A DNA stretch of 64,000 bases, from assembly GCA_047635375.1 (NCBI GenBank), contig JBLIKP010000001.1, positions 7,115-71,114 of the forward strand, given 5' to 3'. The DNA is from Sphingobacteriales bacterium. Its GTDB lineage: Bacteria; Bacteroidota; Bacteroidia; Sphingobacteriales; Sphingobacteriaceae. Shown here in pieces: positions 3,283-36,557 of this stretch (positions within the stretch are counted from its first letter, which is position 1; every line of letters starts with the position of its first letter). A program made the translations under genes and the position numbers. Under the pieces are notes generated by a model that saw nothing but the letters and a program-made list of their open reading frames with translations, was not told where the DNA came from and ran no database searches.

Positions 3283-3762
3283 TTAGGAAGGGTCAACTAA
3301 GAAAAGAGGTTGATCGTATTCAACAGGGCTAGCGTTGTCTATCAAAACCTTAACGATTTTCCCTGAAACTTCAGATTCAATCTCATTGAAAAGTTTCATT
3401 GCTTCAACGATGCAAAGAACTTGTCCTGGTTTGATGGTGTCCCCAACATTTACAAATATATCTTGATCCGGTGAAGGAGTTCTATAAAATGTTCCAATCA
3501 TTGGAGATTTAATAGTGATGTAGTTTGCGTTTTCATCCGCTACTGGAGCATCGGCTGGAGCCGAAGCAGGTGCTGATGGAGCGGGAGTCATTGGCGCTTG
3601 CATTTGTTGCATAGCCTGAGGCGCATAAGCAACCATCTCAGTTTTTCTTTCTTTTGGTGATTTTATCACCAATTTGAAGTCTTCTTTTTCAAGAGATACT
3701 TCGCCTACTCCTGATTTAGAGACAAATTTAATCAGGTCCTGGATTTGTTTTAGATCTAACAT
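3283..3762 (-). CDS. accB: acetyl-CoA carboxylase biotin carboxyl carrier protein
   Basis: 159 aa. An Ala/Pro-rich linker ([18 protein letters not shown]) is followed by the biotinyl-lysine motif [13 protein letters not shown]. Confidence 0.95.
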
Positions 3763-3814
3763 AGAATTGGTTCGTATTGGTAGATAATGTTTACAATAAT
3801 ATTAAAATGTTTCT

Positions 3815-3857
3815 CTACCTCAAAAAAGACTGCCAACAAAAATCAAATTTGAGGTAG
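3815..3857 (-). terminator. long-loop hairpin between fabH and accB (weak terminator or processing structure)
   Basis: 10-bp stem ctacctcaaa (3815-3824) / tttgaggtag (3848-3857) with a 23-nt loop. On the minus strand it is not followed by a clean U-tract, hence the low confidence. Confidence 0.3.
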
Positions 3858-3885
3858 TTTTTAAGTTATTAATAAGTGTTATAAA

Positions 3886-4887
3886 TTATTCTTTTGTGTC
3901 GTAAGCCCATTTAATATAAATGGAGCCCCAGGTGAATCCTCCGCCAAATGCTGCAAGGACAATGTTATCACCTTTTTTCATTTTGCTTTCCCATTCCCAC
4001 AGACATAAAGGAATAGTTCCATTTGTAGTATTTCCATACCTTTGAATGTTTAGCATAACCTTTTCCGGTCCAACACCCATACGACTTGCCGTAGCGTCAA
4101 TTATTCTTTTGTTTGCTTGGTGAGGAACTAACCATGCTACATTTTCTGCAGTTAAGTCGTTTCTTTCCATGATTTCTGCAGCTACATTTGCCATGTTTTC
4201 TACGGCAAATTTAAATACTGTTCTTCCTTCTTGATAAACGTAATGTTCACGAGCGTCAACGGTTTCATGGCTTGCTGGCTTTCTAGAGCCACCAGCTTTT
4301 TGGTGTAAAAATTCAGCTCCTGACCCATCAGATTTTAGGATAGAATCTTGTATTCCAAATCCTTCATCATTTGCTTCTAAAAGCACAGCGCCAGCGCCAT
4401 CACCAAAGATGATGCAAGTTTGTCGGTCGGTGTAGTCGATTATCGACGACATTTTATCACCACCAACCACTACAATTTTTTTATATGAGCCTGTTTCAAT
4501 GAATTTTGAAGCAGTTGCAAGCGAAAATAAGAATCCAGAACAAGCAGCACCTATGTCGTAACTGAAGGCATTGGTTGCTCCAATTTGATCGCATATTAGG
4601 TTGGCTGTGGCCGGAAATTGCATGTCTGGCGTTACAGTAGCGCAGATTAACAAATCGATTTCTTTTGGGTCAATACCACGTTTTTTACAAAGGCCTTTTA
4701 CAGCCTCGGCGCCCATGTGAGATGTTCCTTTGCCTTCGCCTTTTAAAAGCCGACGTTCGTTTATCCCTGTTCGACTAGTTATCCATTCGTCTGTAGTATC
4801 GATCATGGTTTCTAATACCTTGTTCGATAAAACGTAATCAGGTAGATATCCGTTGACTGCTGTAATTGCCGCTTTTATATTTCCCAT
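3886..4887 (-). CDS. fabH: 3-oxoacyl-ACP synthase III
   Basis: 333 aa. Active-site Cys context GAACSGF, plus VPHQANKRI and GNTTNGTIP. Sits in the conserved rpmF-plsX-fabH order. Confidence 0.95.
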   Translation of the reverse strand: MGNIKAAITAVNGYLPDYVLSNKVLETMIDTTDEWITSRTGINERRLLKGEGKGTSHMGAEAVKGLCKKRGIDPKEIDLLICATVTPDMQFPATANLICDQIGATNAFSYDIGAACSGFLFSLATASKFIETGSYKKIVVVGGDKMSSIIDYTDRQTCIIFGDGAGAVLLEANDEGFGIQDSILKSDGSGAEFLHQKAGGSRKPASHETVDAREHYVYQEGRTVFKFAVENMANVAAEIMERNDLTAENVAWLVPHQANKRIIDATASRMGVGPEKVMLNIQRYGNTTNGTIPLCLWEWESKMKKGDNIVLAAFGGGFTWGSIYIKWAYDTKE

Positions 4888-4915
4888 GTATTGGTGTTCG
4901 AGATTTTGAAGGTAG

Positions 4916-5866
4916 CTAAACTACGGCTTCTTTAAATATTTTGGTAATCTTATTGGTAAGATTAGAGGTAACCATGTCTCTTGTCATAAGAATCATGTTT
5001 TTAATAGCCTTAGCATTAGAAATTCCATGACCAATTACAACAGGAGCGTTAACCCCTAAAATTGGGCTTCCTCCATAGTTTTCGTAATTGAATCGGTCAA
5101 AGAATTCGTCCTGAATTCCTCTTTTACGGATATAATAATAAAACGATTCAGCCTCTTTTAAAATTACATTTCCTGTAAAGCCATCACAAACGATTACATC
5201 GGCCTTGTCATTAAAAAGATCGCGCCCTTCAATGTTTCCAGCGAAGTTTATTTGTGGTGTGTTTTTTAAGAGTTGATTTGCGGCTTGGGTAAGGATAGAC
5301 CCTTTTTCTTCTTCTTCCCCAAGGTTCATTAATCCGACTTTAGGATTATCGATTCCGAAAACGCTTTTGGCGAATAATGAACCAAGAATTCCAAATTGGA
5401 CTAAATGTTCCGGCTTACAATCGGCATTGGCACCGACGTCCAAAATCACCCCATAACCACCTTTTTCCTTTGGAACTAGAGCGGCAATTGCAGGACGAGT
5501 AACGCCTTCTATCGGGCGCACACTAAATGCAGCACCAACAAACATAGCGCCTGTATTACCAGCACTTGCGAAGGCATCAACTTTCCCAGCTTTTAATAGG
5601 CCGAAACCTACTGCTATACTTGAGTCTGTTTTTTTAGAAATTGCTTTGGTGGGATGTTCACTCATTCCGATGACTTCGGTGGTGTGAACAATTTCGAAAT
5701 TTTCGGAGTTTGAACCGTTTTGATCTAGGATTGAACGAATTTCTTTTTCGTCTCCAATCAGGACCAACTTGACATCATTACCTAGTTCTTTAGAAGCTTG
5801 AATGGCTCCTAAAGTTGTTTGCAAAGGTGCGAAATCGCCCCCCATTATATCTAAGGCTATTTTCAT
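4916..5866 (-). CDS. plsX: phosphate acyltransferase PlsX
   Basis: 316 aa. Begins [14 protein letters not shown] and contains GNTGA. Lies between rpmF and fabH. Confidence 0.95.
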
Positions 5867-5934
5867 GGATGGTTCCTGTTTTATGCTAACCGAAAGTGGA
5901 TATTTTTTATAAAAACCACAAGAAAAAAGGCGAT

Positions 5935-5971
5935 AAAAAACCCTGCTCCTTTATAATACAAGTGAGCAGGG
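5935..5971 (-). terminator. terminator-like hairpin downstream of rpmF
   Basis: 8-bp stem ccctgctc (5941-5948) / gagcaggg (5964-5971) with a 15-nt loop. The A6 run at 5935-5940 gives a U6 tail on the minus-strand transcript. Confidence 0.5.
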
Positions 5972-5983
5972 TTTGAAATTTCC

Positions 5984-6172
5984 TTACTCTGCAGTGGCTT
6001 CTACCACCATTTTACCGTTGTAGTACATGTTGCCATCAACAAAGTACGCTCGGTGTGGCTGGTGAATAGTACCAGTGGTTGCACATTTTGCCAAAGCAGG
6101 AGCTACCGCTTTGTAATGAGTTCTGCGCTTGTCTCTCCTTGTTTTGGAAATCTTTCTTTTAGGATGTGCCAT
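5984..6172 (-). CDS. rpmF: 50S ribosomal protein L32
   Basis: 62 aa, beginning [21 protein letters not shown]. There is no CxxC pair, so this is the non-zinc form. Confidence 0.95.
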
Positions 6173-6176
6173 TTTG

Positions 6177-6707
6177 CTACGACTTTAAATTTAAATTTTT
6201 CAATGCATCCCAACGTGGATCTTGCTTTTGATCCTTATTGGCAATGTTTAGTTTGTTTATTTCCTCAATAGTGTCTTTATCACAACTTTGTCCGTCAATT
6301 CCAGCGTCTTCACAATTTGGAATCATTGGGAGGCTTAAAACTACGAATTCATAAATGAATTGTTTCAATTCGATTTCTGAAGAGTCTTGTGGAAGAAAGA
6401 TTATCTCATCCGTTGTGTCTTCTTCAGGTCCTGAAAGCTTGATAATTAAGCTTTCTTCTATCCAAATTGGTTGTTTAAATTCCGAAGTACATCGATCGCA
6501 GTTTAGAGTAACAGTACCGTCAAAGTCGAAATGAAGCTGTAACATATGGTCAGCTTTTTCAAATATGAGGTTTAATTCTAAATCACTTCCCGATATCCTA
6601 TCGGCCTCCAGTTGTTCAAAAAACGATGCGTCTATTGAATACTTAAATGAATGTTCTCCGTTTTTCAACCCTAAAAAGGGAATTGTAAAAGCATTTTTTT
6701 TAAGCAT
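6177..6707 (-). CDS. yceD: YceD/DUF177 family protein
   Basis: 176-aa acidic protein that ends 4 nt upstream of rpmF, the classic yceD-rpmF pairing. It carries a Cys cluster ([10 protein letters not shown] ... PNCED ... QSCDKD). Confidence 0.8.
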
Positions 6708-9654: not shown

Positions 9655-9772
9655 TTAATAGATGTCAATCGGGTGAATTCGGTATTTGTTTTGAACAAAT
9701 ACTTTGAAAATAATTTAAATTAGCCATATATTTAAAAATCTTTTGTTTTGAGTTAACACTAGGAAATCAATT

Positions 9773-12700
9773 ATGACAAGAAATTTATTCTCTGCATTAC
9801 TACTATGCATTTTTTCTGTTTCGTTTGCTTTAGCGCAGACGGGATCAGGAGAAATTCGTGGTACTATTACTGATGCGACCACGGGTGAGCCAATTCCATT
9901 TGCAAACATTATTGCAGAAAAGAACGGTGTTCAAGAAGGGGGCGCAAGTACTGACTTTGATGGTAAGTACTCGATTAAACCAATTGGAGCTGGTAAGTAT
10001 GATGTGAAAGTATCATATGTTGGTTATAAAATATTCATAACAACAGGTGTTGTAGTTTCATCAAATAAAACAACTTACTTGGACCCAAAGCTTTCTGCTG
10101 GGGTTCAATTGGATGAGGTTGAGATTGTATCTTATACTAAACCTTTATTGGAAAAAGACAATACCACAGTAGGGGGGACAGTTACTGCCGCAGAAATCGC
10201 AAAGCTTCCAACTAGAAATGTTAACTCCGTTGCTTCAACAACCGCTGGTATTTACCAGGCTGATGAAGGTGGAGGTTTAAATGTTCGTGGTTCTAGATCC
10301 GATGCAACTCAATACTATATTGATGGGATTCGTGTAATTGGTGGTTCAAACTCTATTCCTCAGTCGGCGATTGAGGAATTATCTGTTATTACTGGTGGTG
10401 TTCCTGCTCAATATGGTGACGTTACAGGTGGGGTTGTCTCTATTACTACAAAAGGACCATCTAGAACATACTTTGGAGGTGCTGAAGTAGTTACCTCACA
10501 ATTTTTAGATCCTTATGGATATAACTTGGCAGATGTAAGTGTTTCTGGTCCGCTATTGAAAAAGAACAAAGGAACGGATGCTGAAGCATCAGTTTTGGGC
10601 TTCTTTATTTCAACCCAAGTAAGTTTGCAACAAGATCCTAGCCCTTCGGCTTTAGGTTACTATAAAGTAAAAGATGAGGTTTTGGCTGATTTAGAGGCAA
10701 ATCCTTTACGACCAACATCGGGTGGTGGTACTCAGTTAAATGCTGAATACTTAAGAGCTGATGACTTACAAAAAATTGATGCTAAAAGAGAGTCTGAAAA
10801 TTTAGAAGGCTCTATTGCTGGAAAAATTGACTTTCAACCTAGAAAAAACGTGAATTTCACAGTGGGTGGTTCTGGTCGTTACTTTAAAGGACGTCAATAT
10901 ATTTACGATTACTCGTTATTGAACTTCAAAAACAATCCTGAGCAAATTAAAACAGATTATCGTGTATATGGTAGATTTACTCAGAAGTTTAAAAATAATG
11001 AAGAATCTGGATCTTCATCTTCATTAATAAAAAACGCATTCTATCAAATTCAGGCAGATTTCTCAAAAAGCGAGGATATTCGTCAGCATAATACTCACAA
11101 GGACAATCTTTGGGATTATGGTTATGTAGGTAAATTTGAAACGTACCGTCAACCTATATATGAATACAGAACCGATTCTGTAGTTGATAATGGTGAAAAA
11201 AAGGAAATTACAGCTTTCTTCCAAACAGGTATTCAAGATACTTTGGTTGAATTTAGCCGCCGCGAGGTAAACCCACTTCTTGCTAACTACACAAGTCAAG
11301 TTTATGACTTCATAGGTGATAATAACAACCAAAAAAGAACAAATCAACAAATTGTTCAAAATGGGGCTTTGTTAAATGGAGGTAACCCACAACACGTGTA
11401 TAGCCTTTGGTTTAACACAGGAAGAAATGTTCCAGGTTATAATGAAAGTGACGACTCACAATTTAGACTTTCTGCTTCAGCGTCAGCTGATATAAAAGAT
11501 CATGCAATTAAATTTGGTATTGAATACGAGCAAAGAATTGAGCGTTCATACGGGATTTCCCCACAAGCACTTTGGGGACTTGCCCGTCAATTAACCAATA
11601 AGCATATCACTACCCTTGATACAGATGCAGAGGATGCAATCCTTGTTAAGGATGAAAACGGAAATTTCCAAGGTATAGTAAATTATAATCGCCGAATTGT
11701 TGCTAGTGAACAAGCTGAATTTGATAAAAACTTGAGAGCCGCACTTGGTGTTTCTCCAACGGAATTTATTGACATTGACGCATTAGACCCTAGCACTTTT
11801 GCAGTAAATATGTTCTCTGCCGATGAGCTATTAAATAATGGTAGCAGATTGGTTGGATATACAGGTTATACCTTCGATGGAATAAAGACTACGAATAATA
11901 TTGATTATTTTGATTTCTTCGAGGATAAGGTTAATCGCCCCATAGCCCCTTGGAGCCCAATTTATACTGCCGGTTATATTCAGGACAAATTTTCATTCCG
12001 CGATTTAATTTTTAACGTTGGGGTTCGTGTTGATAGATTCGACGCTAACACTAAAGTGTTAAAGGATAGGTTTTCTCTATACGATGTAAGAACAGCTGGT
12101 GAAGTTGCTGGTTCTCTTAACTCAGCGAATGGTGGTATTCACCCAGCTAATATTGGTGCTGATTATGTAGTATATGTAGATGACCCATTAAATCCATCTA
12201 AAGTTTTAGGTTATCGTTCTGGGCAAGTGTTTTTTGATGCTGCCGGTACAGAACGCGCTGATCCAACTCCTTTAAGATCAACAATCACAAACGTTGTAAC
12301 ACCATACTTATCTGATGACGTTCAAGTTAATTCATCAAATGGTTCGCTAGAGTTAAGCCGTGCTTCTTTTAAAGATTATGAGCCTCAACTTACAATCATG
12401 CCACGTATTGCTTTCTCATTCCCGATTTCGGATGAGGCGGTTTTCTTTGCTAACTATGATGTATTAGCGCAAAGACCTCGTGGAAGTAACGTTACTCTGC
12501 CTTATGATTATTTCTTCCTTGCCTCAGGTGCAATTGGAAGAGTTAATAATCCAGATCTTAAACCAGAGAAGACTACAAACTACCAGTTAGGTTTTAAGCA
12601 AAAATTAAGCAACTCATCTGCAATGACATTAACATCATTCTATCGTGAGTTGAAAGACAACATTCAATTAATTAACGTTTCTTTTGCTTATCCAGTTAAT

Positions 12701-13435
12701 TATAACACATACGATAACGTCGATTTTGGTACTTCAAAAGGATTTACTGTTCAGTATGACCTTCGTAGAACTAACAACATTCGAATTAACGCGAGTTACA
12801 CACTTTCCTTCGCTGAAGGAACTGGGTCAAGCTCGACAAGTGCAGGTAACCTAATTGCATTAGGCCAGCCTAACTTGAGAATTCCAACGGCACTAAGTTT
12901 TGATCAACGCCATAACATCGTAACAACATTTGATTACAGATATGGTGCTGGAAGAGAATACGACGGACCTGAATCGCTTAGAGGATTACTTGAAACATTC
13001 GGTGCTAACTTGATTTTCCGTGTGGGTTCAGGAACTCCATTTACAAAGCAATCAAATTACCTAAGAAATGCTGAGATTGGCGGTGGAGATCAACGATTAA
13101 GATCGCTTGAAGGCTCGATTAACGGTTCACGTTTGCCATGGCAATTCAAGGTTGATTTACGTCTAGATCGTGACATCAACATTGGAGACAATGGAAATAT
13201 GAACGTTTACCTGCTGGTTCAAAACGTTACAAATGCCAAAAACATAACAAATGTGTATAGAGCAACAGGTAACCCTGATGATGATGGATTCCTAACTTCA
13301 AACTTAGGTGAGGAGTTCGTTTCAAATACTACAAACCCACAATCCTATTTGGACTTGTACTCCGCAAAAATGGATAATCCAGCGTTTTACACGCTTCCAA
13401 GAATTATCCGTGTAGGTTTACAATACAGTTTTTAA
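9773..13435 (+). CDS. very large TonB-dependent-receptor-like outer-membrane protein (carboxypeptidase-regulatory-like domain + plug + long barrel)
   Basis: 1220 aa. Signal peptide MTRNLFSALLLCIFSVSFALAQ. The GEIRGTITDATTGEPIPFANI...GKYDVKVSYVGY segment is a CarboxypepD_reg-like sandwich. LDEVEIVSY resembles a TonB box. Plug motifs include NVRGSRS...YYIDGIRV...GGVPAQYGDVTGGVVSITTK. The C-terminus ...RVGLQYSF is typical of a barrel terminus. Confidence 0.8.
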   Translation: MTRNLFSALLLCIFSVSFALAQTGSGEIRGTITDATTGEPIPFANIIAEKNGVQEGGASTDFDGKYSIKPIGAGKYDVKVSYVGYKIFITTGVVVSSNKTTYLDPKLSAGVQLDEVEIVSYTKPLLEKDNTTVGGTVTAAEIAKLPTRNVNSVASTTAGIYQADEGGGLNVRGSRSDATQYYIDGIRVIGGSNSIPQSAIEELSVITGGVPAQYGDVTGGVVSITTKGPSRTYFGGAEVVTSQFLDPYGYNLADVSVSGPLLKKNKGTDAEASVLGFFISTQVSLQQDPSPSALGYYKVKDEVLADLEANPLRPTSGGGTQLNAEYLRADDLQKIDAKRESENLEGSIAGKIDFQPRKNVNFTVGGSGRYFKGRQYIYDYSLLNFKNNPEQIKTDYRVYGRFTQKFKNNEESGSSSSLIKNAFYQIQADFSKSEDIRQHNTHKDNLWDYGYVGKFETYRQPIYEYRTDSVVDNGEKKEITAFFQTGIQDTLVEFSRREVNPLLANYTSQVYDFIGDNNNQKRTNQQIVQNGALLNGGNPQHVYSLWFNTGRNVPGYNESDDSQFRLSASASADIKDHAIKFGIEYEQRIERSYGISPQALWGLARQLTNKHITTLDTDAEDAILVKDENGNFQGIVNYNRRIVASEQAEFDKNLRAALGVSPTEFIDIDALDPSTFAVNMFSADELLNNGSRLVGYTGYTFDGIKTTNNIDYFDFFEDKVNRPIAPWSPIYTAGYIQDKFSFRDLIFNVGVRVDRFDANTKVLKDRFSLYDVRTAGEVAGSLNSANGGIHPANIGADYVVYVDDPLNPSKVLGYRSGQVFFDAAGTERADPTPLRSTITNVVTPYLSDDVQVNSSNGSLELSRASFKDYEPQLTIMPRIAFSFPISDEAVFFANYDVLAQRPRGSNVTLPYDYFFLASGAIGRVNNPDLKPEKTTNYQLGFKQKLSNSSAMTLTSFYRELKDNIQLINVSFAYPVNYNTYDNVDFGTSKGFTVQYDLRRTNNIRINASYTLSFAEGTGSSSTSAGNLIALGQPNLRIPTALSFDQRHNIVTTFDYRYGAGREYDGPESLRGLLETFGANLIFRVGSGTPFTKQSNYLRNAEIGGGDQRLRSLEGSINGSRLPWQFKVDLRLDRDINIGDNGNMNVYLLVQNVTNAKNITNVYRATGNPDDDGFLTSNLGEEFVSNTTNPQSYLDLYSAKMDNPAFYTLPRIIRVGLQYSF

Positions 13436-13456
13436 GAAAAAATTAAAGTGTATATA

Positions 13457-16400
13457 ATGAATAGCATTCAATTTAAAAAAATACCTTTTGTTTTAGCAGG
13501 GTTAATGCTGCTTTCAACAGCCTCTATGGCAGAGAAAGACGTAAACCGCAAATCAAAACCAAATGTTAATTCATCTCCGGGTAAGGTGGCAAATAATTGT
13601 AGTACGCCATTGGCCCAATTGGATTTGGATATAAATAACGTTAGAACAACCCTGCTGACGGGCGGAGATCTTTGGTGGGATCGCTCAACAGCTAGATACG
13701 AAATTCCTAAAGTTGAACCTGGATCAGGTGAAACCTCAAGAAATTCTTTGTTCGCTGGAGCCTTATGGTTTGGTGGTGTTGATGCTGGTGGAAACTTAAA
13801 AGTTGCCGCAGCTACTTATGGTCAAGGTGGAAAAGATTTCTGGCCTGGACCATTAACTACCTCTGCCGCATCTACAAATGCAGATATTTGTGCACAATAT
13901 GATAAGCTTTGGAAAGTCAACCGTTCCGAAATCGATACGTTTATTGCAAACTACGATAAGGATGGGTACAAAATTCCAGAATCTATTGAAACATGGCCAG
14001 GAAATGGTGATCAGTCGCTAGGACATGCTAAGAACTTAGCTCCTTTTCACGATGAAGATGGTGATGGTTTGTATAATCCAGCAGCTGGAGATTACCCTGA
14101 AATCTCAGGGGATCAGGCGCTTTGGTGGGTATATAATGATAAAGGAAATGTTCACTCAGAATTTGGTGGAGACCCAATTGGACTTGAAGTGCAAGTTCTG
14201 GCCTTTGGTTTTGCCACCAATGACGAACGAAATAACATGACTTTTTACAAGTATCGTGTAATTAACCGTTCTCCAAACTCTTCCTTAGACTCAACTGTTT
14301 TCGGACAATGGGTTGATCCTGATTTAGGGTTCGCCTTTGATGATTATGTTCAATGTGATGTTGATCGCTCATTGGGTATTTGTTTTAACGGAGATGATTT
14401 GGATGAGAATTCAAATGGTTATGGTTTAAACCCTCCATCTATCGGAGTTGACTTTTTCCAAGGTCCACTTGCAGATGAGAATGATGGTATAGATAACAAC
14501 CGTGATGGTGTTATTGATGAGCTAGGAGAAACAATTATCATGTCTAAATTTGTTTACTATAACAATACTAGTGATCCAGTAAACGGAAACCCAAGTACAG
14601 ACAATGATATCTACAACTATCTTAATGGTGTTTGGAGAAATGGTCAAAGGATTACTTATGGAGGAAACGGAACAACAGCAGGTGGTGATCCAGCTGACTT
14701 TATGTTCCCTGGAACAACAGATCCAAACGGACGTCCTCAATGGACTGAAATCACAGAAGGTAACACTCCTGAAGATAGAAGATTTTTACAAACCGCTGGT
14801 CCTTTTACATTGAAGCCGGGTGCTGTAAATGAAATTATTGTAGGAGTTGTTTGGGCGAGAGCATCAAGCGGAGGATCAACTGGTTCTTTCGACGTGCTAA
14901 GAAAAGCCGACGATAAAGCGCAAATTTTATTCTTTAACGATTTTAAATTAATTGATGGACCAACAGCACCAGATTTGAAAGGTGTTGAATTAGACCGTGA
15001 AATAATTTTAGTATTAGATAACACTGAAGGTACCGAAGGGTATATTGATTCAATTAAGAATAAAAATGGTATAAATATTAACTTTAAGTTCCAGGGATAC
15101 CAAGTTTATCAATTAGCAAACTCTACTGTTACCGCTGGAGACTTGGAAGATGTTACTAAAGCTAGGTTAATCTGGCAATCTGATATTCAAGATGGAATTG
15201 GAAGAATTGTAAACTTTGAGGATGACCCTAAATTACCAGAAGATATTCCAGTAATTAAAGTTGAAGGTCAAGACCAAGGAATTGAGCATACTCTCCAATT
15301 AAAGCAAGATATTTTTGCAACGGGGGATAATAAATTAGTGAATCATAAGCCGTACTATTTCTTGGTGATTTCTTATGCATTTACCGATGATTCAAATTTT
15401 GAACAACCCTATTTAGCTGGTCGTCGAGTTTCAACAATGACCGCTATTCCTCATAAATCTAATCCTCAAAATGGTGGAACGGTTATAAATTCTACTTATG
15501 GCGATGGAGTTCAAATTACTCGTATCGAAGGATTAGGAAATGGCGGGAATGTTTTAGACTTAACAGCGGAAATGGAGGCTCAAATTATGTCAGGAGCGCC
15601 ACATTCAGTTTTGAACCCTGTTTATAATTTAGGGAAAGGTCCTTTGGGAGTTTCAGTTTATAACCCTGTAAATGTACCAGGTGGAAATTTCGATTTTAAA
15701 TTGGAAAGCACTCTTGATAATTGGACAATCACAAGTGAATCAACAAATAAAGTTGTTTCAAACGCATCTGCCTTAGACACTGGTGTTTCTGAGAAAATAT
15801 TAAGTGGTGCAGATTTTGATTGGGGATTAGTTGCAAAACTTAAAAATGTAAACAATCCAGGAATTAAGGCTAGTGCTCAAAATAGCAATTCATTCCTTGA
15901 GGCATCAGTAGCGTTTAATGATCCAACTCAACAATGGTTGACGTTCTTACCTGATATTGAGTTTACACCTTTTAACTGGTTAACATCAGAGCCTGACCCT
16001 GCACGTGGCACACCAGATAATAGACAAGATCCTTTAGGAGCTTATTTAAATGTTTTAAGTGGTACATGGGGCCCATTAAAATTAGCATCAAACAATGTTG
16101 ATTTTGGGCCACAGGTTAAACCGAGTTTCGCATCCTTTATCAGAAATGACCTTTACGAAACAATGAAAAGTGTGGATGTAGTATTTACTGCAGACCAATC
16201 TTTGTGGACTCGTTGTGTTGTTATTGAAACAGGTGGAGATCCAAATCTTTCTGAAGGAAATGCTGAGAAATGGCAACTTCGTAAACGTACATCAGTTAAA
16301 AAAGACGGTACTCCAGATGCTACGGCAGGTGAAGGTTTAGGCTGGTTCCCAGGCTACGCCATTGATGTAGAGAGTGGAAAGCGGCTAAACGTTGTTTTCG

Positions 16401-17155
16401 GCGAGGATAGCTGGTTGAAATCTGAAAATGGTGGTGACATGTTGTTTAATCCGACAGCCAATATAACTCGTGGCCCTGGTGGAAATGGATTTGACAATTT
16501 TGTAAACGGTGGTAAGCACTACCTTTATGTCCACAACTCTACTTACGATGAAGGTGCCGCTGCAAAACAAATTTTAGTTGATTACTGGGATGACAATGGC
16601 AGTAAAAATCCATTAAAAAATTACTTAGGTCAAATGGGATGGATGTCCATTCCTTTAGCAACAGGAAATGCAGCATTTTTAGCTACAGACATAAGGGTTA
16701 GATTAAGAGTTGGAAGAACTTATGCTAAGGAAGATGCAGGAACTAAAACGTTCCAAAATGGCGGTTATCCATTGTTTAAGTTTAGTACTGACGCAATTGC
16801 ATCAAGTACAAATAATTTTGAAGCAGCTAAATCAGCATTAAGCTTGGTAAACATTGTTCCTAACCCATATTTTGCATTTTCAACTTACGAAAACAACCAG
16901 GTTGATAACAGGATTAAGTTTACAAACTTGCCAAAAAGAGCAACGATTTCTATTTATACATTAAGCGGAAGTTTAGTAAGAAGATTAGAAAAAGATTCTG
17001 ATGGACTTACTTCCTTGGATTGGGATTTAAAAAATAGTTCAAGAGTTCCAATCGCAAGTGGTATGTACCTTATTCATGTTGACGGAAAAGAATTGGGAGA
17101 AAGAACCCTTAAATGGTTTGGTGTAATGCGTCCAATTGATCTTGATACATTCTAA
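13457..17155 (+). CDS. large secreted protein of unknown family with a T9SS type-A-like C-terminal sorting domain
   Basis: The ORF-track entry starts at GTG 13448; I prefer ATG 13457 (MNSIQFKKIPFVLAGLMLLSTASMA, an SPI-type signal with no lipobox Cys). I can name no domain across roughly 1,100 aa. The C-terminus has CTD motifs: IVPNPYF, ATISIYTLSGSLVRRL and ASGMYLIHVDGKELGERTLKWFGV. Confidence 0.75.
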   Translation: MNSIQFKKIPFVLAGLMLLSTASMAEKDVNRKSKPNVNSSPGKVANNCSTPLAQLDLDINNVRTTLLTGGDLWWDRSTARYEIPKVEPGSGETSRNSLFAGALWFGGVDAGGNLKVAAATYGQGGKDFWPGPLTTSAASTNADICAQYDKLWKVNRSEIDTFIANYDKDGYKIPESIETWPGNGDQSLGHAKNLAPFHDEDGDGLYNPAAGDYPEISGDQALWWVYNDKGNVHSEFGGDPIGLEVQVLAFGFATNDERNNMTFYKYRVINRSPNSSLDSTVFGQWVDPDLGFAFDDYVQCDVDRSLGICFNGDDLDENSNGYGLNPPSIGVDFFQGPLADENDGIDNNRDGVIDELGETIIMSKFVYYNNTSDPVNGNPSTDNDIYNYLNGVWRNGQRITYGGNGTTAGGDPADFMFPGTTDPNGRPQWTEITEGNTPEDRRFLQTAGPFTLKPGAVNEIIVGVVWARASSGGSTGSFDVLRKADDKAQILFFNDFKLIDGPTAPDLKGVELDREIILVLDNTEGTEGYIDSIKNKNGININFKFQGYQVYQLANSTVTAGDLEDVTKARLIWQSDIQDGIGRIVNFEDDPKLPEDIPVIKVEGQDQGIEHTLQLKQDIFATGDNKLVNHKPYYFLVISYAFTDDSNFEQPYLAGRRVSTMTAIPHKSNPQNGGTVINSTYGDGVQITRIEGLGNGGNVLDLTAEMEAQIMSGAPHSVLNPVYNLGKGPLGVSVYNPVNVPGGNFDFKLESTLDNWTITSESTNKVVSNASALDTGVSEKILSGADFDWGLVAKLKNVNNPGIKASAQNSNSFLEASVAFNDPTQQWLTFLPDIEFTPFNWLTSEPDPARGTPDNRQDPLGAYLNVLSGTWGPLKLASNNVDFGPQVKPSFASFIRNDLYETMKSVDVVFTADQSLWTRCVVIETGGDPNLSEGNAEKWQLRKRTSVKKDGTPDATAGEGLGWFPGYAIDVESGKRLNVVFGEDSWLKSENGGDMLFNPTANITRGPGGNGFDNFVNGGKHYLYVHNSTYDEGAAAKQILVDYWDDNGSKNPLKNYLGQMGWMSIPLATGNAAFLATDIRVRLRVGRTYAKEDAGTKTFQNGGYPLFKFSTDAIASSTNNFEAAKSALSLVNIVPNPYFAFSTYENNQVDNRIKFTNLPKRATISIYTLSGSLVRRLEKDSDGLTSLDWDLKNSSRVPIASGMYLIHVDGKELGERTLKWFGVMRPIDLDTF

Positions 17156-17182
17156 TTTTAAATCAGAAAGAAATTAATAACT

Positions 17183-18229
17183 ATGAAGAATATTTATAGG
17201 TTACTTACAATAACTGCCTTAGCCGGGTTAACCTTGACTTCAGCGAATGCTGGTAATAAGGAAAGAACCGCACAAAATGGTGGGAATGAATTATTAATTA
17301 ACCCATGGGCACGAAGCTCAGGATGGGGAGGGATTAATACAGCGTCCGTAAGAGGTTTGGAGTCAATCAACGGTAATATCGGTGGATTGGCCTTTACTAA
17401 AAAGACTGAAGTGATTTTTGCAAACACCAACTACTTGCAGGCAGCAGATATTTCAATCAATAATTTTGGGTTTGCCCAAAAAATCGGAGAAAGTGGAGTG
17501 CTAGCGGCCTCTGTTTTTTCTATGAATTTTGGAGATATTCCAATTACTAGGGAAGATCAACCAGAAGGTGGATTGGGTACTTATGCACCACAATTTATCA
17601 CCATTAATTTAGCTTATTCGAAAGAGTTCTCTAATAGTATTTATGGAGGTATTGTTGTGAAAGCAATTAATGAGAATATTGCTAACGTAAAAGCTTCAGG
17701 ATTCGCTATTGATGCAGGTATACAATATGTGGCTGGTTCTAGAAACCAGATGCAATTTGGAATTGCTTTGAGAAATGTTGGTCCGAAAATGAGTTTTTCT
17801 GGTGATGGGCTTTCTAAGCGTGTTATTTTTGACAACGGTGTTCCAGGAACTATCCAACAAAGAAGCCAAGCTTTTGAATTACCTTCATTAATGAATATTG
17901 GCGCGTCTTATGACTTTCAGCTTGCTGAAGACCATAGACTAACAACTGCGGGTAATTTTACCAGTAATTCATTTACTAGTGACCAATTTGGTTTAGGTGT
18001 TGAATATGGTTTTAAAAGTTACCTAATGGTTCGTGGAGGTTATAACTATGAATCAGACATCGAAAGTCAAGTGAATACTTTGAATTTATTCACTGGATTT
18101 AGCGCAGGTGCAACTTTTGAAATTCCATTAAGTGATAAAGGTTCTAACTTCGGAATCGATTATTCTTACCGCCCGACATACGTGTTTGGAGGTTCGCATA
18201 CCATCGGTGTCAGAATTGATTTGAACTAG
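17183..18229 (+). CDS. PorV/PorQ-family-like outer-membrane beta-barrel
   Basis: 348 aa. Signal peptide MKNIYRLLTITALAGLTLTSANA. The N-terminal GGNELLINPWARSSGWGGINTASVRGLESINGNIGGLAF resembles the G-x-x-FL-x-I-x-x-x-AR-x-x-G-x-G-G ... NPAGLA signature I recall for PorV/PorQ-type barrels. The rest shows the alternating amphipathic pattern of a beta-barrel. Confidence 0.55.
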   Translation: MKNIYRLLTITALAGLTLTSANAGNKERTAQNGGNELLINPWARSSGWGGINTASVRGLESINGNIGGLAFTKKTEVIFANTNYLQAADISINNFGFAQKIGESGVLAASVFSMNFGDIPITREDQPEGGLGTYAPQFITINLAYSKEFSNSIYGGIVVKAINENIANVKASGFAIDAGIQYVAGSRNQMQFGIALRNVGPKMSFSGDGLSKRVIFDNGVPGTIQQRSQAFELPSLMNIGASYDFQLAEDHRLTTAGNFTSNSFTSDQFGLGVEYGFKSYLMVRGGYNYESDIESQVNTLNLFTGFSAGATFEIPLSDKGSNFGIDYSYRPTYVFGGSHTIGVRIDLN

Positions 18230-18254: not shown

Positions 18255-18292
18255 AGAAGGTTATTCCTAACGGGATAACCTTCTTCTTGTTT
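18255..18292 (+). terminator. rho-independent terminator ending the 9773-18229 operon
   Basis: 10-bp stem agaaggttat (18255-18264) / ataaccttct (18275-18284) with a 10-nt loop, followed by the T-rich tail tcttgttt. Confidence 0.7.
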
Positions 18293-18312: not shown

Positions 18313-18786
18313 ATGAGTGATTTTAATTATTTTACCAAAGAGGGACTTGATAAATTAAAAGCGGAAATCCGAGAACTTAAAACCAAAGGTCGGCCGGATA
18401 TGTCAAGGCAAATCGGCGAAGCTAGGGACAAAGGGGATTTATCGGAAAACGCCGAATATGACGCTGCAAAGAACGCTCAAGGGCTAATGGAGATGCGAAT
18501 TTCACAACTCGAAGGAGTTTTGGGTAAAGCTAGGCTAATTGACGAGTCCAAAATCGACACTACCAAAGTTTTGATTTTATCTAAGGTTAAAGTAAGAAAC
18601 CTAGGAAATGGAATCGAAACGGTTTATCAATTAGTAAGTGAAAAGGAAGCAGATCTAAAAACAGGTAGAATTTCAATTAAGTCCCCAGTTGCTAAAGGAT
18701 TATTAGGCAAGTCTGTAGGTGATAAAGCTGAGGTTCAAGCTCCAAATGGTAAAATGGAGTTTGAAGTATTAGAGATCTCAAGATAA
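18313..18786 (+). CDS. greA: transcription elongation factor GreA
   Basis: 157 aa. Has the N-terminal coiled coil with GDLSENAEYDAAK and the C-terminal globular domain. Confidence 0.95.
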   Translation: MSDFNYFTKEGLDKLKAEIRELKTKGRPDMSRQIGEARDKGDLSENAEYDAAKNAQGLMEMRISQLEGVLGKARLIDESKIDTTKVLILSKVKVRNLGNGIETVYQLVSEKEADLKTGRISIKSPVAKGLLGKSVGDKAEVQAPNGKMEFEVLEISR

Positions 18787-32165: not shown

Positions 32166-34262
32166 TTACTTAGTGTAAACTACATTTTTGGTTACCGTAC
32201 TGTTTGAAGTCTTCATTCTCACGAAATAAACTCCAGCATTTGTAAAGCTGTTTTCATTAGCATTTAACTTAATCTTATGGCTTCCTGCCGATAAAGTCTC
32301 GTTTGTTACGCTAATAACACGACCAGTAATATCTAAAACTTCAAGTGTGATATTGTCGGCTTTTTCAAGGTCGAAATTAACACTAAGATCCTGAGTAAAT
32401 GGATTTGGAGCTAAAGTGAATCTCAACTTGAGGGCTTCGGCATCAGCTATACTAGTAGATGGGTTGGCATCATAAATATTGATATTGTCCATGTAAAAAT
32501 TGTTTCCTCCACCTGTGGTAAAGTCGAAACGAATTAGCCCACTAGTTGCACCTTCAATAGCGCCTAAATCAATAATTTGTTCTACCCATTCAGATTCTGA
32601 ACTTGGGAAATAAGTTCCCCCAACAGGTCCGTCTGAGGTTTCCATTTGGCCACCAGCACGACTTAATCTAACTTTCCAAGTTAACCCACAGTTATTACTT
32701 ACATAAACAGTTAATCTGTCAGCGCTTTGGTTAGTCCTTCTGGCGTATGCCATTCGGAAAGAAAGCTTTGGAGAATTCATGTTTGAAATATTGATTCCTG
32801 GGCTAATTAATTGGTCAGTTAAACCTGTAGGAGCGCCATTCACGTTGCTATAATAGATTGAAGCTGCTCCAGTATATGAGGCTTGTTCTGAACGTTGGAA
32901 TGTACGATCGTTGTCTTCGTTTATAATATTCCATCCATCGATATCGAAAGGGTCTGTTTCAAAACCTTCTGTTATTGGTCCGAATAAATCGCTTGTATTT
33001 TTTTGAATTTCAATGTAATCTTGTTTCAAAAGGCTATCAGAACCATTTGCGTTAGAAACCTTAAGTTGAACAGTGTATTTACCATCCAATTTAAATTTTA
33101 CGTTAGGGTTTTTACCCATAACAACAAATGAAGTGTCGCCATTGTCAAAAGTCCATTCCCAAGCATCAACCTCAGCATTGTAGCTATGGTCTGTGAAGGT
33201 TAAGGAAGACCCTGCACATGCAAGCGTGCTATTTGTATTGAAATCAGGGATTGGTGCGCATCCTGGAGAAACATATCCGTCATTTGTACCAGTCGCGATT
33301 AGATTCTGTTCAGTATGGTAAGTGTTTAATGAACCTGAGTTCATTAATGCAGCACGCATTCTGTCTTGTTGCCCATGAGTAAACATACGCTCGCAGCTAG
33401 AGTAATCCATAATGTTTTCAACATTATCAAGACTACCGCAAGATTCTGACGCCTTATTACATCCAGATGATCCAACTGTTAATGGTGTGTCGTCCACGCC
33501 ATCATCAAAGTTGCAATTTGCTATTTCTAAGGGAGTGTTAGTGCCCCCCCAAGTATGTGAAAGGTTATAAAAGTGACCTACTTCGTGTGGAAGGGTACGT
33601 CGACTTAAGTTACCACCTTGACCGAATTGGTTATAGCGGCAGTAAATAGCCCATCTTGGGTTTCCTGGAGCAAAAGTTCCAGGGTTGAATGTATATGCGC
33701 CAGCACCTGATTGCATATTGCGAACAACATAGATGTTCATGTATTTTTTTGTGTCCCAGCTGATTACTGCAGATACTCCAGCATTGTCTCCACCGTCGTT
33801 GGTTTTGTTAGAAAAAGTACGAGTGATACCGTCGGTGCAATTTCCGTTAGGATCAATTTGAGCAAAACGTAATTCAACGTAAGAAGCTCCCATTATTTTT
33901 CTAAAAGTGTCTAACACTTGATTAGAATCCTCGGCCATTTTAAGGTGGTCAAGGTTACTTAGGGCAATAGCGTTAAGCACATCTGATTTAGGAATGTTTT
34001 CAGGGCCATATTCGTGTAGAATATGAACTACCACTGGTATGATAAGTTTTTCGACTGTATCAGTTGATCTTTGAGAAGCTTTGTTAGCAATATAAAATTG
34101 GGTAGCTTCTTCAAGAGCCGCTCTTCGAGCTTGAGCTTCGGTATCATGTTGTACCACATTATCAGTATGACTGTGTGTTGTACATAGTCGTTGTGCCTGT
34201 GCATTTTTCGTTGCCGTTAGGCCTAATGCACCTAGAAGTAAGAGAGTGAAAATTTTACGCAT
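32166..34262 (-). CDS. secreted M43-type (cytophagalysin/pappalysin-like) zinc metalloprotease with PKD-like and MAM-like domains and a T9SS CTD (paralog 1)
   Basis: The ORF-track start at 34337 is rejected in favour of ATG 34262 (MRKIFTLLLLGALGLTATKNAQAQ, a signal peptide). Contains HEVGHFYNLSH, the Met-turn NIMDYS, TTGGGNNFYMDNINIYD and the CTD APNPF...LDITGRVIS...GVYFVRM...VYTK. Confidence 0.85.
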   Translation of the reverse strand: MRKIFTLLLLGALGLTATKNAQAQRLCTTHSHTDNVVQHDTEAQARRAALEEATQFYIANKASQRSTDTVEKLIIPVVVHILHEYGPENIPKSDVLNAIALSNLDHLKMAEDSNQVLDTFRKIMGASYVELRFAQIDPNGNCTDGITRTFSNKTNDGGDNAGVSAVISWDTKKYMNIYVVRNMQSGAGAYTFNPGTFAPGNPRWAIYCRYNQFGQGGNLSRRTLPHEVGHFYNLSHTWGGTNTPLEIANCNFDDGVDDTPLTVGSSGCNKASESCGSLDNVENIMDYSSCERMFTHGQQDRMRAALMNSGSLNTYHTEQNLIATGTNDGYVSPGCAPIPDFNTNSTLACAGSSLTFTDHSYNAEVDAWEWTFDNGDTSFVVMGKNPNVKFKLDGKYTVQLKVSNANGSDSLLKQDYIEIQKNTSDLFGPITEGFETDPFDIDGWNIINEDNDRTFQRSEQASYTGAASIYYSNVNGAPTGLTDQLISPGINISNMNSPKLSFRMAYARRTNQSADRLTVYVSNNCGLTWKVRLSRAGGQMETSDGPVGGTYFPSSESEWVEQIIDLGAIEGATSGLIRFDFTTGGGNNFYMDNINIYDANPSTSIADAEALKLRFTLAPNPFTQDLSVNFDLEKADNITLEVLDITGRVISVTNETLSAGSHKIKLNANENSFTNAGVYFVRMKTSNSTVTKNVVYTK

Positions 34263-34413
34263 TTGTTGTTTTTTGATGTTTTGAGATTTTAAAGATAATA
34301 AATACTTGCGATTAGCGCAATAATACACAATTCGCAAAGTGCTTAATTATGGCATGAATTTTATGCTAAATCCTTGTGTTTTGAACAAAATCAACGATTT
34401 TAGGATAGGACAT

Positions 34414-34466: not shown

Positions 34467-36557
34467 TTATTGGAAAATTACTTTTTCAATAAGGATACCA
34501 TGCTCAGAAGTTAGCTTTAAAAGGTAAACTCCTTTTGCTGGAAACAAATTGTTCCCATTAAAATTAAATGAGCTTGAAGAACTATCTAAAATCACAGCTT
34601 TGACAATTTTCCCAGTAATATCCATTACTTCTAAAGTAGAAGCCAGAGCAGAATTTGAAACTGAAATATTGAAGTTGTTATTAATTGGGTTAGGAGAAAC
34701 CTTAAATGAAACTCCTGATTTTTCAGTCACTCCCGTTGAAGGATTGTTGTCTACAATTTGGATGTTGTCAAAGTAAAGGTTATTGCCACCACCTGTTGTA
34801 ATTTGAAATTTAAACATTGCATTTGTTGCATCATCAATTGAGCTTAGGCTAATTTCATGTTCTACCCATTCGTCTGCCGAGCCAGGGAAGTATGCGCCAG
34901 ACTGTGGACCATCAGTGGTTTCCATTCCTGAACCGAATTTGCTGAATTTGAATTTCCATAATTTACCGCAGTTGGTTGAAGTAAATACAACAAGTCTATC
35001 ACTGGAGCTATTGTTTCTTCTAGCGTAAGCTAAGCGGAAACGTAATACAGGCTCATTCATATTGCTTATATCCACAGCAGGTGAAATCAACTCTGGATTT
35101 TTCCCTGAAGCATTCCCATTTGGCTGATTGTAAACTAAAGAGGCCGCACCTTGATATGAGGCATCGTAAGTTATTTCGAATGCTCTTCCGTCTTTGTCAG
35201 GAACTATTACCCAGTTACTATCGGTAAAATTTTCGTATTCAAATCCTTGTTGAACGTATCCTTGAAGATCTCCATTTTCAGGAATAACGCGAACCCAAGC
35301 CTCACGTGTAAGTGAATCTGATCCAGTTGCATTTGAAACGACTAATTTTACATCAAATTCACCACCCATGGTAAAAGTCATTGTTGGGTTTTGTTCGGTT
35401 GAAATAATGGTAGTGTCTTCGTTCGAGAATGTCCATTCCCAAGCGTCAGGTATGCCGTTCCAAGTAAAGTCGGTAAATTTTATTGGCTCACCTTCGCAGG
35501 CCGTTCTATAATTTTGCCAGAAATCTGCATAAGGCATAATCACATAGGAGTTAGTATCTAAAATACCCGTTACTTCGGCATTTTCTGGCGTAATTAAACG
35601 GTCTATTTTATTTCCTCCTGCTTTCAATGCAGCATGCATTCTATCGGTTTGACCGTGAGTAAACATGTTTTGGCAAGAACCGTTGGTGTAATCCATGTAG
35701 TTGTCAGTCATGTCGAATGTACCACAGGTCTGTTTATTAGTTGGGCATCCACTTGAGGAAGCTGAAGCGTCTGGAGTATCATTTACGCCATCAGAGGCTC
35801 CACAACCACCATCACCCCAAATGTGGCGAAGATTTAAGCAGTGGCCAATTTCGTGTACTAAAGTACGTCCTTGGTTATCGAAAGCGGTTCCAAATTCAAT
35901 TGATCCAGTAACATCGGCACGGATAACAATCCCGTAAGTAGCATCGGCTCCAGTTCCTGGGAATTGAGCATATCCAAGAATAACTCCTCCTCCGCCACTA
36001 GCGCCAATATTTCTAACCACCCATACATTAAAATAACTTGTTTGAGGCCAAACAGAAATTGCTTTATCTGTCCTGTCTGGTTGATTGTTGAAATCGGTAG
36101 CTGATGTAGGTACCATCACACGTCCATCTGTTCTTTCGCCGTTAGGATCTTTTCTAGCAAGGCGAAATTCGATATAAGTATCGGAGGCAACAGCGCGCCA
36201 GCGTTCGTCAGTGTCTGTGGTATCTGGATTAATCCGTCTAAAGTCCTCATTGATAATTCTTACTTGATCTTCAATTTGGGCACGGCTTATTGCCTCTGGA
36301 CCATATTGATGATAAATGTGGAATACAATTGGAATATAAACAGTGTCTTCGTGAGTTTGGGAAGTAACTTTTCTATTTTCTAAATACTGAAGAGTGAATT
36401 GCTCAAGTGCATCACGGTTTTCCTTGTATTCAGGATTTTCTTTAAAATTAATTTCTGTTTGCTCAGTGGTGTAACATGGAATTACAGCTTCCTGAGCTAT
36501 TGCACTTCCTGCAGAAAAGAACATTGCAGCAAGCAGAAAAGAAGAGAGATGTTTCAT
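34467..36557 (-). CDS. secreted M43-type zinc metalloprotease with PKD-like and MAM-like domains and a T9SS CTD (paralog 2)
   Basis: 696 aa. Signal peptide MKHLSSFLLAAMFFSAGSAIAQ. Contains HEIGHCLNLRH, NYMDYT, TTGGGNNLYFDNIQIVD and the CTD SPNPI...MDITGKIV...GVYLLKL...VIFQ. Confidence 0.85.
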   Translation of the reverse strand: MKHLSSFLLAAMFFSAGSAIAQEAVIPCYTTEQTEINFKENPEYKENRDALEQFTLQYLENRKVTSQTHEDTVYIPIVFHIYHQYGPEAISRAQIEDQVRIINEDFRRINPDTTDTDERWRAVASDTYIEFRLARKDPNGERTDGRVMVPTSATDFNNQPDRTDKAISVWPQTSYFNVWVVRNIGASGGGGVILGYAQFPGTGADATYGIVIRADVTGSIEFGTAFDNQGRTLVHEIGHCLNLRHIWGDGGCGASDGVNDTPDASASSSGCPTNKQTCGTFDMTDNYMDYTNGSCQNMFTHGQTDRMHAALKAGGNKIDRLITPENAEVTGILDTNSYVIMPYADFWQNYRTACEGEPIKFTDFTWNGIPDAWEWTFSNEDTTIISTEQNPTMTFTMGGEFDVKLVVSNATGSDSLTREAWVRVIPENGDLQGYVQQGFEYENFTDSNWVIVPDKDGRAFEITYDASYQGAASLVYNQPNGNASGKNPELISPAVDISNMNEPVLRFRLAYARRNNSSSDRLVVFTSTNCGKLWKFKFSKFGSGMETTDGPQSGAYFPGSADEWVEHEISLSSIDDATNAMFKFQITTGGGNNLYFDNIQIVDNNPSTGVTEKSGVSFKVSPNPINNNFNISVSNSALASTLEVMDITGKIVKAVILDSSSSSFNFNGNNLFPAKGVYLLKLTSEHGILIEKVIFQ

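Follow-up and report, generated by a model that had tools for sequence, protein, structure and literature searches.

We analyzed a 64,000-nucleotide (nt) stretch of the genome of a Sphingobacteriales bacterium (assembly GCA_047635375.1, contig JBLIKP010000001.1, positions 7,115 to 71,114; this whole stretch is here called the window). Within it, three plus-strand genes are packed in the order transporter, big secreted protein, and barrel, separated by gaps of 12 nt and 27 nt. The first (positions 9773 to 13435) encodes a giant TonB-dependent transporter of 1,220 amino acids (aa), recognized by its Pfam matches and adjoining the second gene in nearly all related loci. The second (13448 to 17155) is an open reading frame (ORF) for a 1,235-aa secreted protein of an unnamed family, and the third (17183 to 18229) encodes a 348-aa, 14-stranded barrel that the family model NF033709, a phylogeny, and Foldseek identify as a fourth PorV/PorQ-family paralog. 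An earlier note on this DNA had described, at the end of the big protein, type IX secretion system (T9SS) C-terminal domain (CTD) motifs followed by a nine-residue tail, and had proposed that this CTD and the barrel encoded 27 nt downstream form a cognate pair. Its coordinates and features match what we find, and comparative and modeling evidence supports the predicted pairing. What the note took for a pair is, however, really a trio, with the transporter upstream as its third member.

The last ~100 aa of the big protein contain VPNPY, ISIYTLSGSLV, and SGMYLIHV...LKWFGV, followed by MRPIDLDTF at the C terminus. The CTD-like beta-sandwich itself (aa 1135 to 1226, encoded at 16850 to 17125 on the plus strand) is marked by the PNPY, GMYLIH, and LKWFG motifs, and its strands are present in both AlphaFold2 models. 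It has the fold and motifs of a type-A CTD, with VPNPY, SGMYLIH, and LKWFG aligning to true CTDs elsewhere in the window and to those of PorU and PorZ, and it differs from ordinary CTDs in carrying an insert of ~9 aa (YFAFSTYEN) after the PNP motif. Against the type-A model TIGR04183 it scores 20.0 bits, compared with a cut-off of 23, covering profile positions 2 to 61 of 72, and the Pfam model Por_Secre_tail (PF18962), matched by 3 of 21 relatives, does not match the big protein. The best weak match is the PorZ CTD (NF052228; E = 1.2e-5), and across 21 family members the PorZ CTD was matched by 14, TIGR04183 by 12 (E ≤ 0.01), and the PorU CTD by 7. Because its best matches are the CTDs of PorZ and PorU, we liken this domain to CTDs that are retained. 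PorU and PorZ are themselves substrates of the T9SS; their CTDs are retained, and they are bound to PorV and PorQ, respectively (PMC10202324), so the premise from which the earlier proposal started agrees with the published account. Type A CTDs contact loops of PorV and share a near-invariant, functionally important lysine near the C terminus (PMC10994853); by inspection, K1222 of the big protein, kept in 60 of 61 aligned homologs, appears to be this residue. Judged by its sequence, the domain is probably a type-A-like T9SS CTD, and the big protein would accordingly be predicted to depend on the T9SS.

Unlike a canonical CTD, this domain does not end at the C terminus of the protein. Nine conserved residues (aa 1227 to 1235, MRPIDLDTF, encoded at 17126 to 17152 on the plus strand and defined by alignment and conservation) follow the last strand. 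The three type-A CTD proteins in the window (ending in ...VVYTK, ...VIFQ, and ...LVVK; TIGR04183 scores of 38 to 44 bits) stop at the last strand, and so do the genome's own PorU (...LVTLR) and PorZ (...ILFIN), neither of which has a tail; the contrast with other CTD ends that the earlier note had drawn is therefore real. (The three proteins used for this comparison are paralogs of ~700 aa, encoded at 32169 to 34337 and 34470 to 36557 on the minus strand and at 48496 to 50574 on the plus strand, with weak similarity to metzincin [zinc-metalloprotease] lipoproteins.) When a profile was iterated over the C termini of all ORFs in the source genome, ~127 CTD-like ends were collected, and an acidic segment after the last strand was absent from all of the others.

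Across 61 aligned homologs, conservation peaks in the tail (mean of 0.85, versus 0.72 for the CTD and 0.50 to 0.74 elsewhere). R1228 is invariant, the P, D, L, D, and F positions are each kept in at least 93% of sequences, and six of the nine positions reach at least 90%. The family consensus is [ML]-R-P-[IVL]-D-L-D-[TS]-F-COOH, with a deep core of L-D-x-aromatic-COOH; among the best 120 of more than 5,000 homologs, all 120 end in ...KWFGxMRPxDLD[TS]F. Relatives in other classes of the phylum are ~1,100 aa long and carry the tail variants QEQQILDRF, KKRIQLDLL, MPQKQIPKY, and xEAQYIDRL, and every such relative examined has a C-terminal extension that ends in L-D-x-aromatic or similar. That the most conserved segment of the protein is this near-invariant tail is unlike what would be expected of a signal that is cut off and discarded.

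The barrel scores 154.6 bits against the PorV/PorQ family model NF033709 (cut-off 90). It has a signal peptide ending in ...TSANA before GN and a conserved N-terminal hatch, AGNxxRxGxAGxxELLINPWARS. Assignment to a named member of the family was rejected in each case, both by score and by its placement in a clade of its own: PorQ (NF033711; 86.5 versus 220 bits), PorV (NF033710; 75.3 versus 250 bits), and PorV2 (NF052325; 42.8 versus 325 bits). PorP/SprF (TIGR03519) was likewise rejected at 24.8 versus 90.55 bits. The source genome encodes four PorV-family barrels, namely PorV (478 bits, beside PorU), PorQ (336 bits), PorV2 (477 bits), and the barrel described here, and it encodes PorZ as well. 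In the barrel tree these correspond to four clades, none supported at less than 100/98: PorV, PorQ, PorV2, and the barrels of tailed proteins. One branch, with 100/98 support, places all 16 barrels adjoining a big protein on the same side, and five other complete genomes each contain every one of the four types once or twice. The barrel is a fourth, well-supported clade of the PorV family, and the suggestion that it is a dedicated paralog, encoded in addition to the general ones, holds up on both the gene count and the tree. The comparison with PorQ fared less evenly: the two are similar in size (345 aa for the genome's PorQ and 348 aa for the barrel), but the tree places the barrel no closer to PorQ than to PorV.

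In structural searches with the modeled barrel, Foldseek returned PorV of F. johnsoniae as the best match (8gl6_F and 6h3i_F; TMt 0.68 to 0.72), ahead of FadL and BamG. Conserved positions lie mostly in the N-terminal hatch and in the loops assigned as L2 and L4, with the hatch and L2 the highest, and the periplasmic turns are 2 to 6 residues long. The genome's PorV2 barrel (G000:C12:7191-8171; L004 1489-2562, minus strand) lies beside ligA; no tailed CTD cargo was found next to it in the source genome, its other neighbor being an unrelated, apparently cytoplasmic protein of 234 aa. In Bacteroides thetaiotaomicron, too, the cut-off of the PorV/PorQ family model is exceeded. To our knowledge this species is regarded as lacking a T9SS, and a PorV-family barrel there would act outside such a system.

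The association of the three genes was examined in 80 related loci from species-representative genomes, 79 of which were informative. The order transporter, big protein, barrel is found in 72 of the 79, mostly followed by greA, and in these linked loci the barrel starts 5 to 127 nt 3' of the big gene; the remaining 7 loci (~9%) contain an orphan big protein with neither neighbor. Within a sample of 251 genomes of the phylum (barrel threshold, E ≤ 1e-25), 84 encode the barrel and 78 encode the big protein, and none of these 78 lacks the barrel. Linkage in related genomes, as expected of a cognate pair, is thus seen both at the level of the locus and at the level of the genome. The module-bearing genomes also all contain a true PorV-class match (78 of 78), and in the source organism's own class the genomes with the big protein and those with the barrel are an identical set of 12. 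The three genomes sampled from the source family have neither, which indicates that the module is patchy and not part of a core genome.

The transporter is a constant member as well. The complete trio was found in 19 of 20 regions from the phylum sample; in 14 regions from other classes, 15 of 15 big-protein triads are complete. Over these regions together, which surround 10 class-level and 24 other-class loci, the trio is complete in all but one, an orphan second copy. Own-class genomes with the module have 3 to 7 PorV-family barrels, compared with ~2.8 on average in those without it. In other classes (L132 to L145 and L096 to L105), single genomes contain 2 to 4 complete trios with distinct tail types and at least eight PorV-family barrels. 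A tree of these other-class barrels groups them by the tail type of the adjoining protein and not by genome; two barrels beside MPQKQ tails, from different genomes, pair with 100% support. Such tracking of tail type by barrel clades may represent a specificity code. Taken together, these data show near-obligate adjacency, co-occurrence, and co-duplication of the protein, the barrel, and the transporter.

Departures from the standard arrangement were also seen. Orphan copies at L009, L018, L021, L048, L077, L084, L085, and L087 keep the CTD and the tail while transporter and barrel neighbors are absent, and the L018 orphan comes from the same metagenome-assembled genome (MAG) as a complete operon, L010. 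Two genomes (G087 and G167) have two big-protein genes and one barrel each. Such genomes, together with the orphans, suggest that several tailed proteins may share one barrel in trans. At L145 (G149:C43, 1281 to 6296), a barrel gene (1281 to 2426) and an 871-aa transporter-like ORF (3684 to 6296) adjoin a complete trio, and the intervening ~1.2 kb contains no detectable big-protein homolog; the arrangement could represent a degenerate module or else a version in which the partner is small.

The transporter of the window has a signal peptide, an N-terminal carboxypeptidase-regulatory-like domain (CarboxypepD_reg, PF13620; 57 bits), a plug (40.9 bits), and a barrel of ~990 aa (TonB_dep_Rec_b-barrel; 42.6 bits) ending in ...LQYSF. 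A TonB-box-like sequence, QLDEVEIVSY, precedes the plug, so that plug, barrel, and TonB box are all present as in a TonB-dependent transporter. It does not belong to the SusC/RagA subfamily: neither SusC/RagA nor any other equivalog among the NCBIfam models was matched at E ≤ 0.01, and the downstream partner has neither a lipobox nor a SusD domain. No relative was found by sequence in the PDB.

Sequence signals flanking the three genes suggest a single unit. A promoter-like site precedes the transporter (9704 to 9732, plus strand); it agrees with the sigma-70 consensus at 10 of 12 positions, a weak indication given that promoters of Bacteroidota deviate from that consensus. Directly 3' of the barrel stop codon, a terminator-like hairpin with a 13-bp stem and a T-rich tail (18255 to 18284, plus strand) would end the unit, and a scan of the window locus found no terminator-like site between the big gene and the barrel gene. 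The next gene after the hairpin is greA (18313 to 18786). It lies 3' of the barrel in ~60 of 80 class-level loci and not in other classes, and its adjacency is probably inherited gene order with no functional link.

Between the big gene, which ends with a TAA at 17153 to 17155, and the barrel gene, the stop codon and spacer together (17153 to 17182) read TAA-TTT-TAA followed by seven sense codons, and the two genes share one reading frame. Programmed readthrough from one into the other was considered and rejected: the genes are in frame in 21 of 88 loci, no more than the one-third expected by chance, and the shared frame looks like chance as well. The frame did provide a construct for modeling. 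With both TAA codons read as Gly, the CTD, the tail, a 10-residue linker, and the barrel become one chain, for which an alignment was assembled from 21 paired in-frame loci, 62 CTD-only rows, and 62 barrel-only rows. AlphaFold2 modeled this fusion with a predicted local distance difference test (pLDDT) score of 92.6 and a predicted template modeling (pTM) score of 0.88, all five models having a pLDDT of at least 89 (one construct, 21 paired rows). By our estimate, the barrel makes up ~66% of the fusion chain, and a CTD that was not placed would cap the pTM at ~0.68. Since the value of 0.88 exceeds this, the CTD is placed with low predicted error relative to the barrel, and the model implies that it docks there confidently. 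The pLDDT of the tail changes from ~60 in the monomer model to ~95 at fusion-model residues 127 to 130, where the tail starts.

The passenger that would be held in this way is less easily described. The big protein is 1,235 aa when read from a GTG or 1,232 aa from an ATG at 13457, the latter likely being the true start. It has a Sec signal peptide (...STASMA before EK) and no lipobox. A database search returned more than 5,000 homologs at ~45% identity over the full length; the cluster members that were looked up all come from uncultured or MAG-derived Bacteroidota and are labeled either hypothetical or "T9SS C-terminal target domain-containing." Across 21 members the passenger has no Pfam or NCBIfam match, and a profile search of the PDB gave nothing significant. 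Homology to glycoside hydrolases of the GH116 or GH94 type was not accepted, the Foldseek matches being weak beta-sandwich matches with TM scores of at most 0.24 on the full model. The AlphaFold2 monomer model (pLDDT 84, pTM 0.70) is mostly beta, and residues 200 to 480 contain Asp-rich loops with many invariant Asp, Asn, and Gly positions.

On balance, we favor the view that a retained CTD has, in this barrel, its own private carrier and anchor of the PorV type, within a three-gene outer-membrane module. The big protein would be exported by Sec, recognized through its type-A-like CTD by the T9SS translocon, and presumably carried across the outer membrane there. It would leave the translocon bound to its own PorV-family barrel and not to the general PorV shuttle. 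PorU would not remove the CTD, which together with the tail would stay docked on the barrel, in keeping with a proposal made in a review for cognate PorV-like barrels, namely that they shield a CTD from cleavage (PMC10202324). The docked barrel would then anchor the 130-kDa passenger on the cell surface beside the co-encoded TonB-dependent transporter, where the passenger probably serves to capture or process a ligand that is then imported.

Several points weigh against this view. The CTD of the big protein falls below the TIGR04183 cut-off. Docking is deduced from pTM arithmetic on one fused construct with only 21 paired rows, and the fusion model leaves the docking face unfixed among the extracellular loops, the periplasmic face, and the lumen. 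Gene linkage alone is no proof of physical binding, and given the ~9% of loci with an orphan big protein, pairing in cis is not obligatory. Finally, the passenger has no recognizable fold or family, and a role in uptake is argued only from the neighboring transporter.

One alternative is that the module works independently of the T9SS: an Oar-like transporter would export or insert the big protein and hand it to the barrel, and the CTD would be no more than an immunoglobulin-like docking domain. The three genes are indeed constantly together, the CTD is below the type-A cut-off, and the transporter, which is not a SusC/RagA member, shares its PF13620 N-terminal domain with Oar-type receptors. 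The Oar protein of Myxococcus is a TonB-dependent transporter that is reportedly needed for secretion of PopC. We nonetheless consider this explanation improbable. A PorV-class match accompanies the module in every sampled genome that has it, so that no T9SS-free carrier was seen among them; type-A fold motifs are preserved in the CTD, as is the lysine near the C terminus; orphan copies without the transporter retain both CTD and tail; and a plugged barrel of the 22-strand type is an unlikely conduit for a folded 130-kDa protein.

The big protein might otherwise be ordinary T9SS cargo, from which PorU cleaves the CTD so that the protein is released or linked to anionic lipopolysaccharide (A-LPS), with the barrel working alongside the transporter for another purpose, for example by forming a FadL-like channel through which a hydrophobic ligand passes. 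The fold of the barrel is FadL-like, the CTD has type-A motifs, and PorU, PorV, PorQ, and PorZ are all present for processing. One would not, however, expect a discarded signal to surpass the rest of the protein in conservation or to carry a near-invariant extra tail. Nor would this account lead one to expect a barrel phylogeny that tracks tail type or a CTD that AlphaFold2 docks confidently on the barrel, and the nearest structural relative of the barrel is PorV, a protein carrier, not a transport FadL. We give this account a small chance. Less probable still is a periplasmic complex in which the big protein stays on the inner side of the outer membrane and the barrel is bound, at its periplasmic face or its hatch, by the CTD and tail: although the N-terminal hatch is the most conserved part of the barrel and the fusion model does not fix the docking face, the periplasmic turns span just 2 to 6 residues, conserved positions lie on loops L2 and L4, the CTD resembles known T9SS export signals, and CTD binding by PorV and PorQ takes place on the outer side (PMC10202324, PMC10994853).

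Literature searches on PorV2, on PorV-like and PorQ-like proteins, and on PorV together with TonB-dependent transporters found no description of the trio in the library searched. T9SS cargo is kept on the cell either by covalent linkage to A-LPS after removal of the CTD or by a partner barrel, as in PorU-PorV, PorZ-PorQ, and type B cargo with PorP. The logic of a retained CTD on a barrel is therefore already established for other pairs, and four things are new here: the clade of the barrel, the family of its cargo, the tail, and a transporter as partner. As in the PorZ-PorQ and PorU-PorV pairs of Porphyromonas gingivalis, a type-A-like CTD would be kept and held at the surface by a PorV/PorQ-family barrel, and porU adjoins porV just as the big gene adjoins the barrel gene. 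The present barrel, by contrast, belongs to a fourth clade, and the CTD has an insert and an invariant nine-residue tail, both absent from PorU and PorZ. The passenger is unrelated to PorU, a C25 sortase, or to PorZ. Whereas those proteins belong to the attachment complex, the pair described here is wired to a TonB-dependent transporter, and the genome has a normal attachment complex too.

Type B substrates offer a second precedent, in that alternative carriers take them from the translocon and subsequently serve as their anchors (PMC10994853, PMC9143113). In SprB-SprF and PG1035-PorP, cargo and dedicated barrel are encoded side by side, and the barrel replaces PorV and then acts as the anchor (PMC9143113, PMC10994853), as we propose here; the module differs from these pairs in having a barrel of the PorV/PorQ family, a type-A-like CTD, and a transporter in the unit. 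Like this module, SusC/SusD, RagAB, and BtuB-BtuG include a large TonB-dependent transporter that has a TonB box and, at its N terminus, a carboxypeptidase-like domain. In SusC/SusD-type systems, too, the transporter gene lies directly upstream of a large partner (here with a 12-nt gap). Here, however, the partner is neither a lipoprotein nor SusD-like: its signal peptide is a plain one, its tether would be the contact between CTD and barrel, and its transporter fails the SusC/RagA model. BamG of the Bacteroidota beta-barrel assembly machinery (BAM) is, like the present barrel, a 14-strand barrel of the FadL family that holds a surface protein (PMC12578637). There, a conserved terminal extension of ~10 residues on the barrel itself fills its own lateral opening (PMC12578637), whereas here the extension is on the partner, and Foldseek places the present barrel closer to PorV.

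A more ambitious proposal goes further; we put it forward as a tentative one, with the odds against it. The L-D-x-aromatic tail would be a plug-in peptide that locks the uncleaved CTD into a barrel of the fourth class, possibly through a FadL-type lateral opening or the hatch. At the SprA translocon the barrel would first be a private replacement for PorV; afterward it would remain as a permanent socket. The trio as a whole would be a previously unrecognized capture-and-import machine, ancient in the phylum and multiplied in classes other than Bacteroidia, and a counterpart of SusC/SusD built on a different anchoring principle.

The trio stands a reasonable chance of being a distinct outer-membrane machine that has yet to be described. 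It adds to the PorV family a fourth clade, one dedicated to just one cargo family, itself very widespread, and its nine-residue tail would provide a simple, testable determinant for why some CTDs escape PorU. The constancy of the transporter suggests that the nutrient-uptake stations built by many uncultured Bacteroidota dispense with a SusD-type lipoprotein. If this is true, the transporter loci of abundant environmental bacteria need a different annotation.

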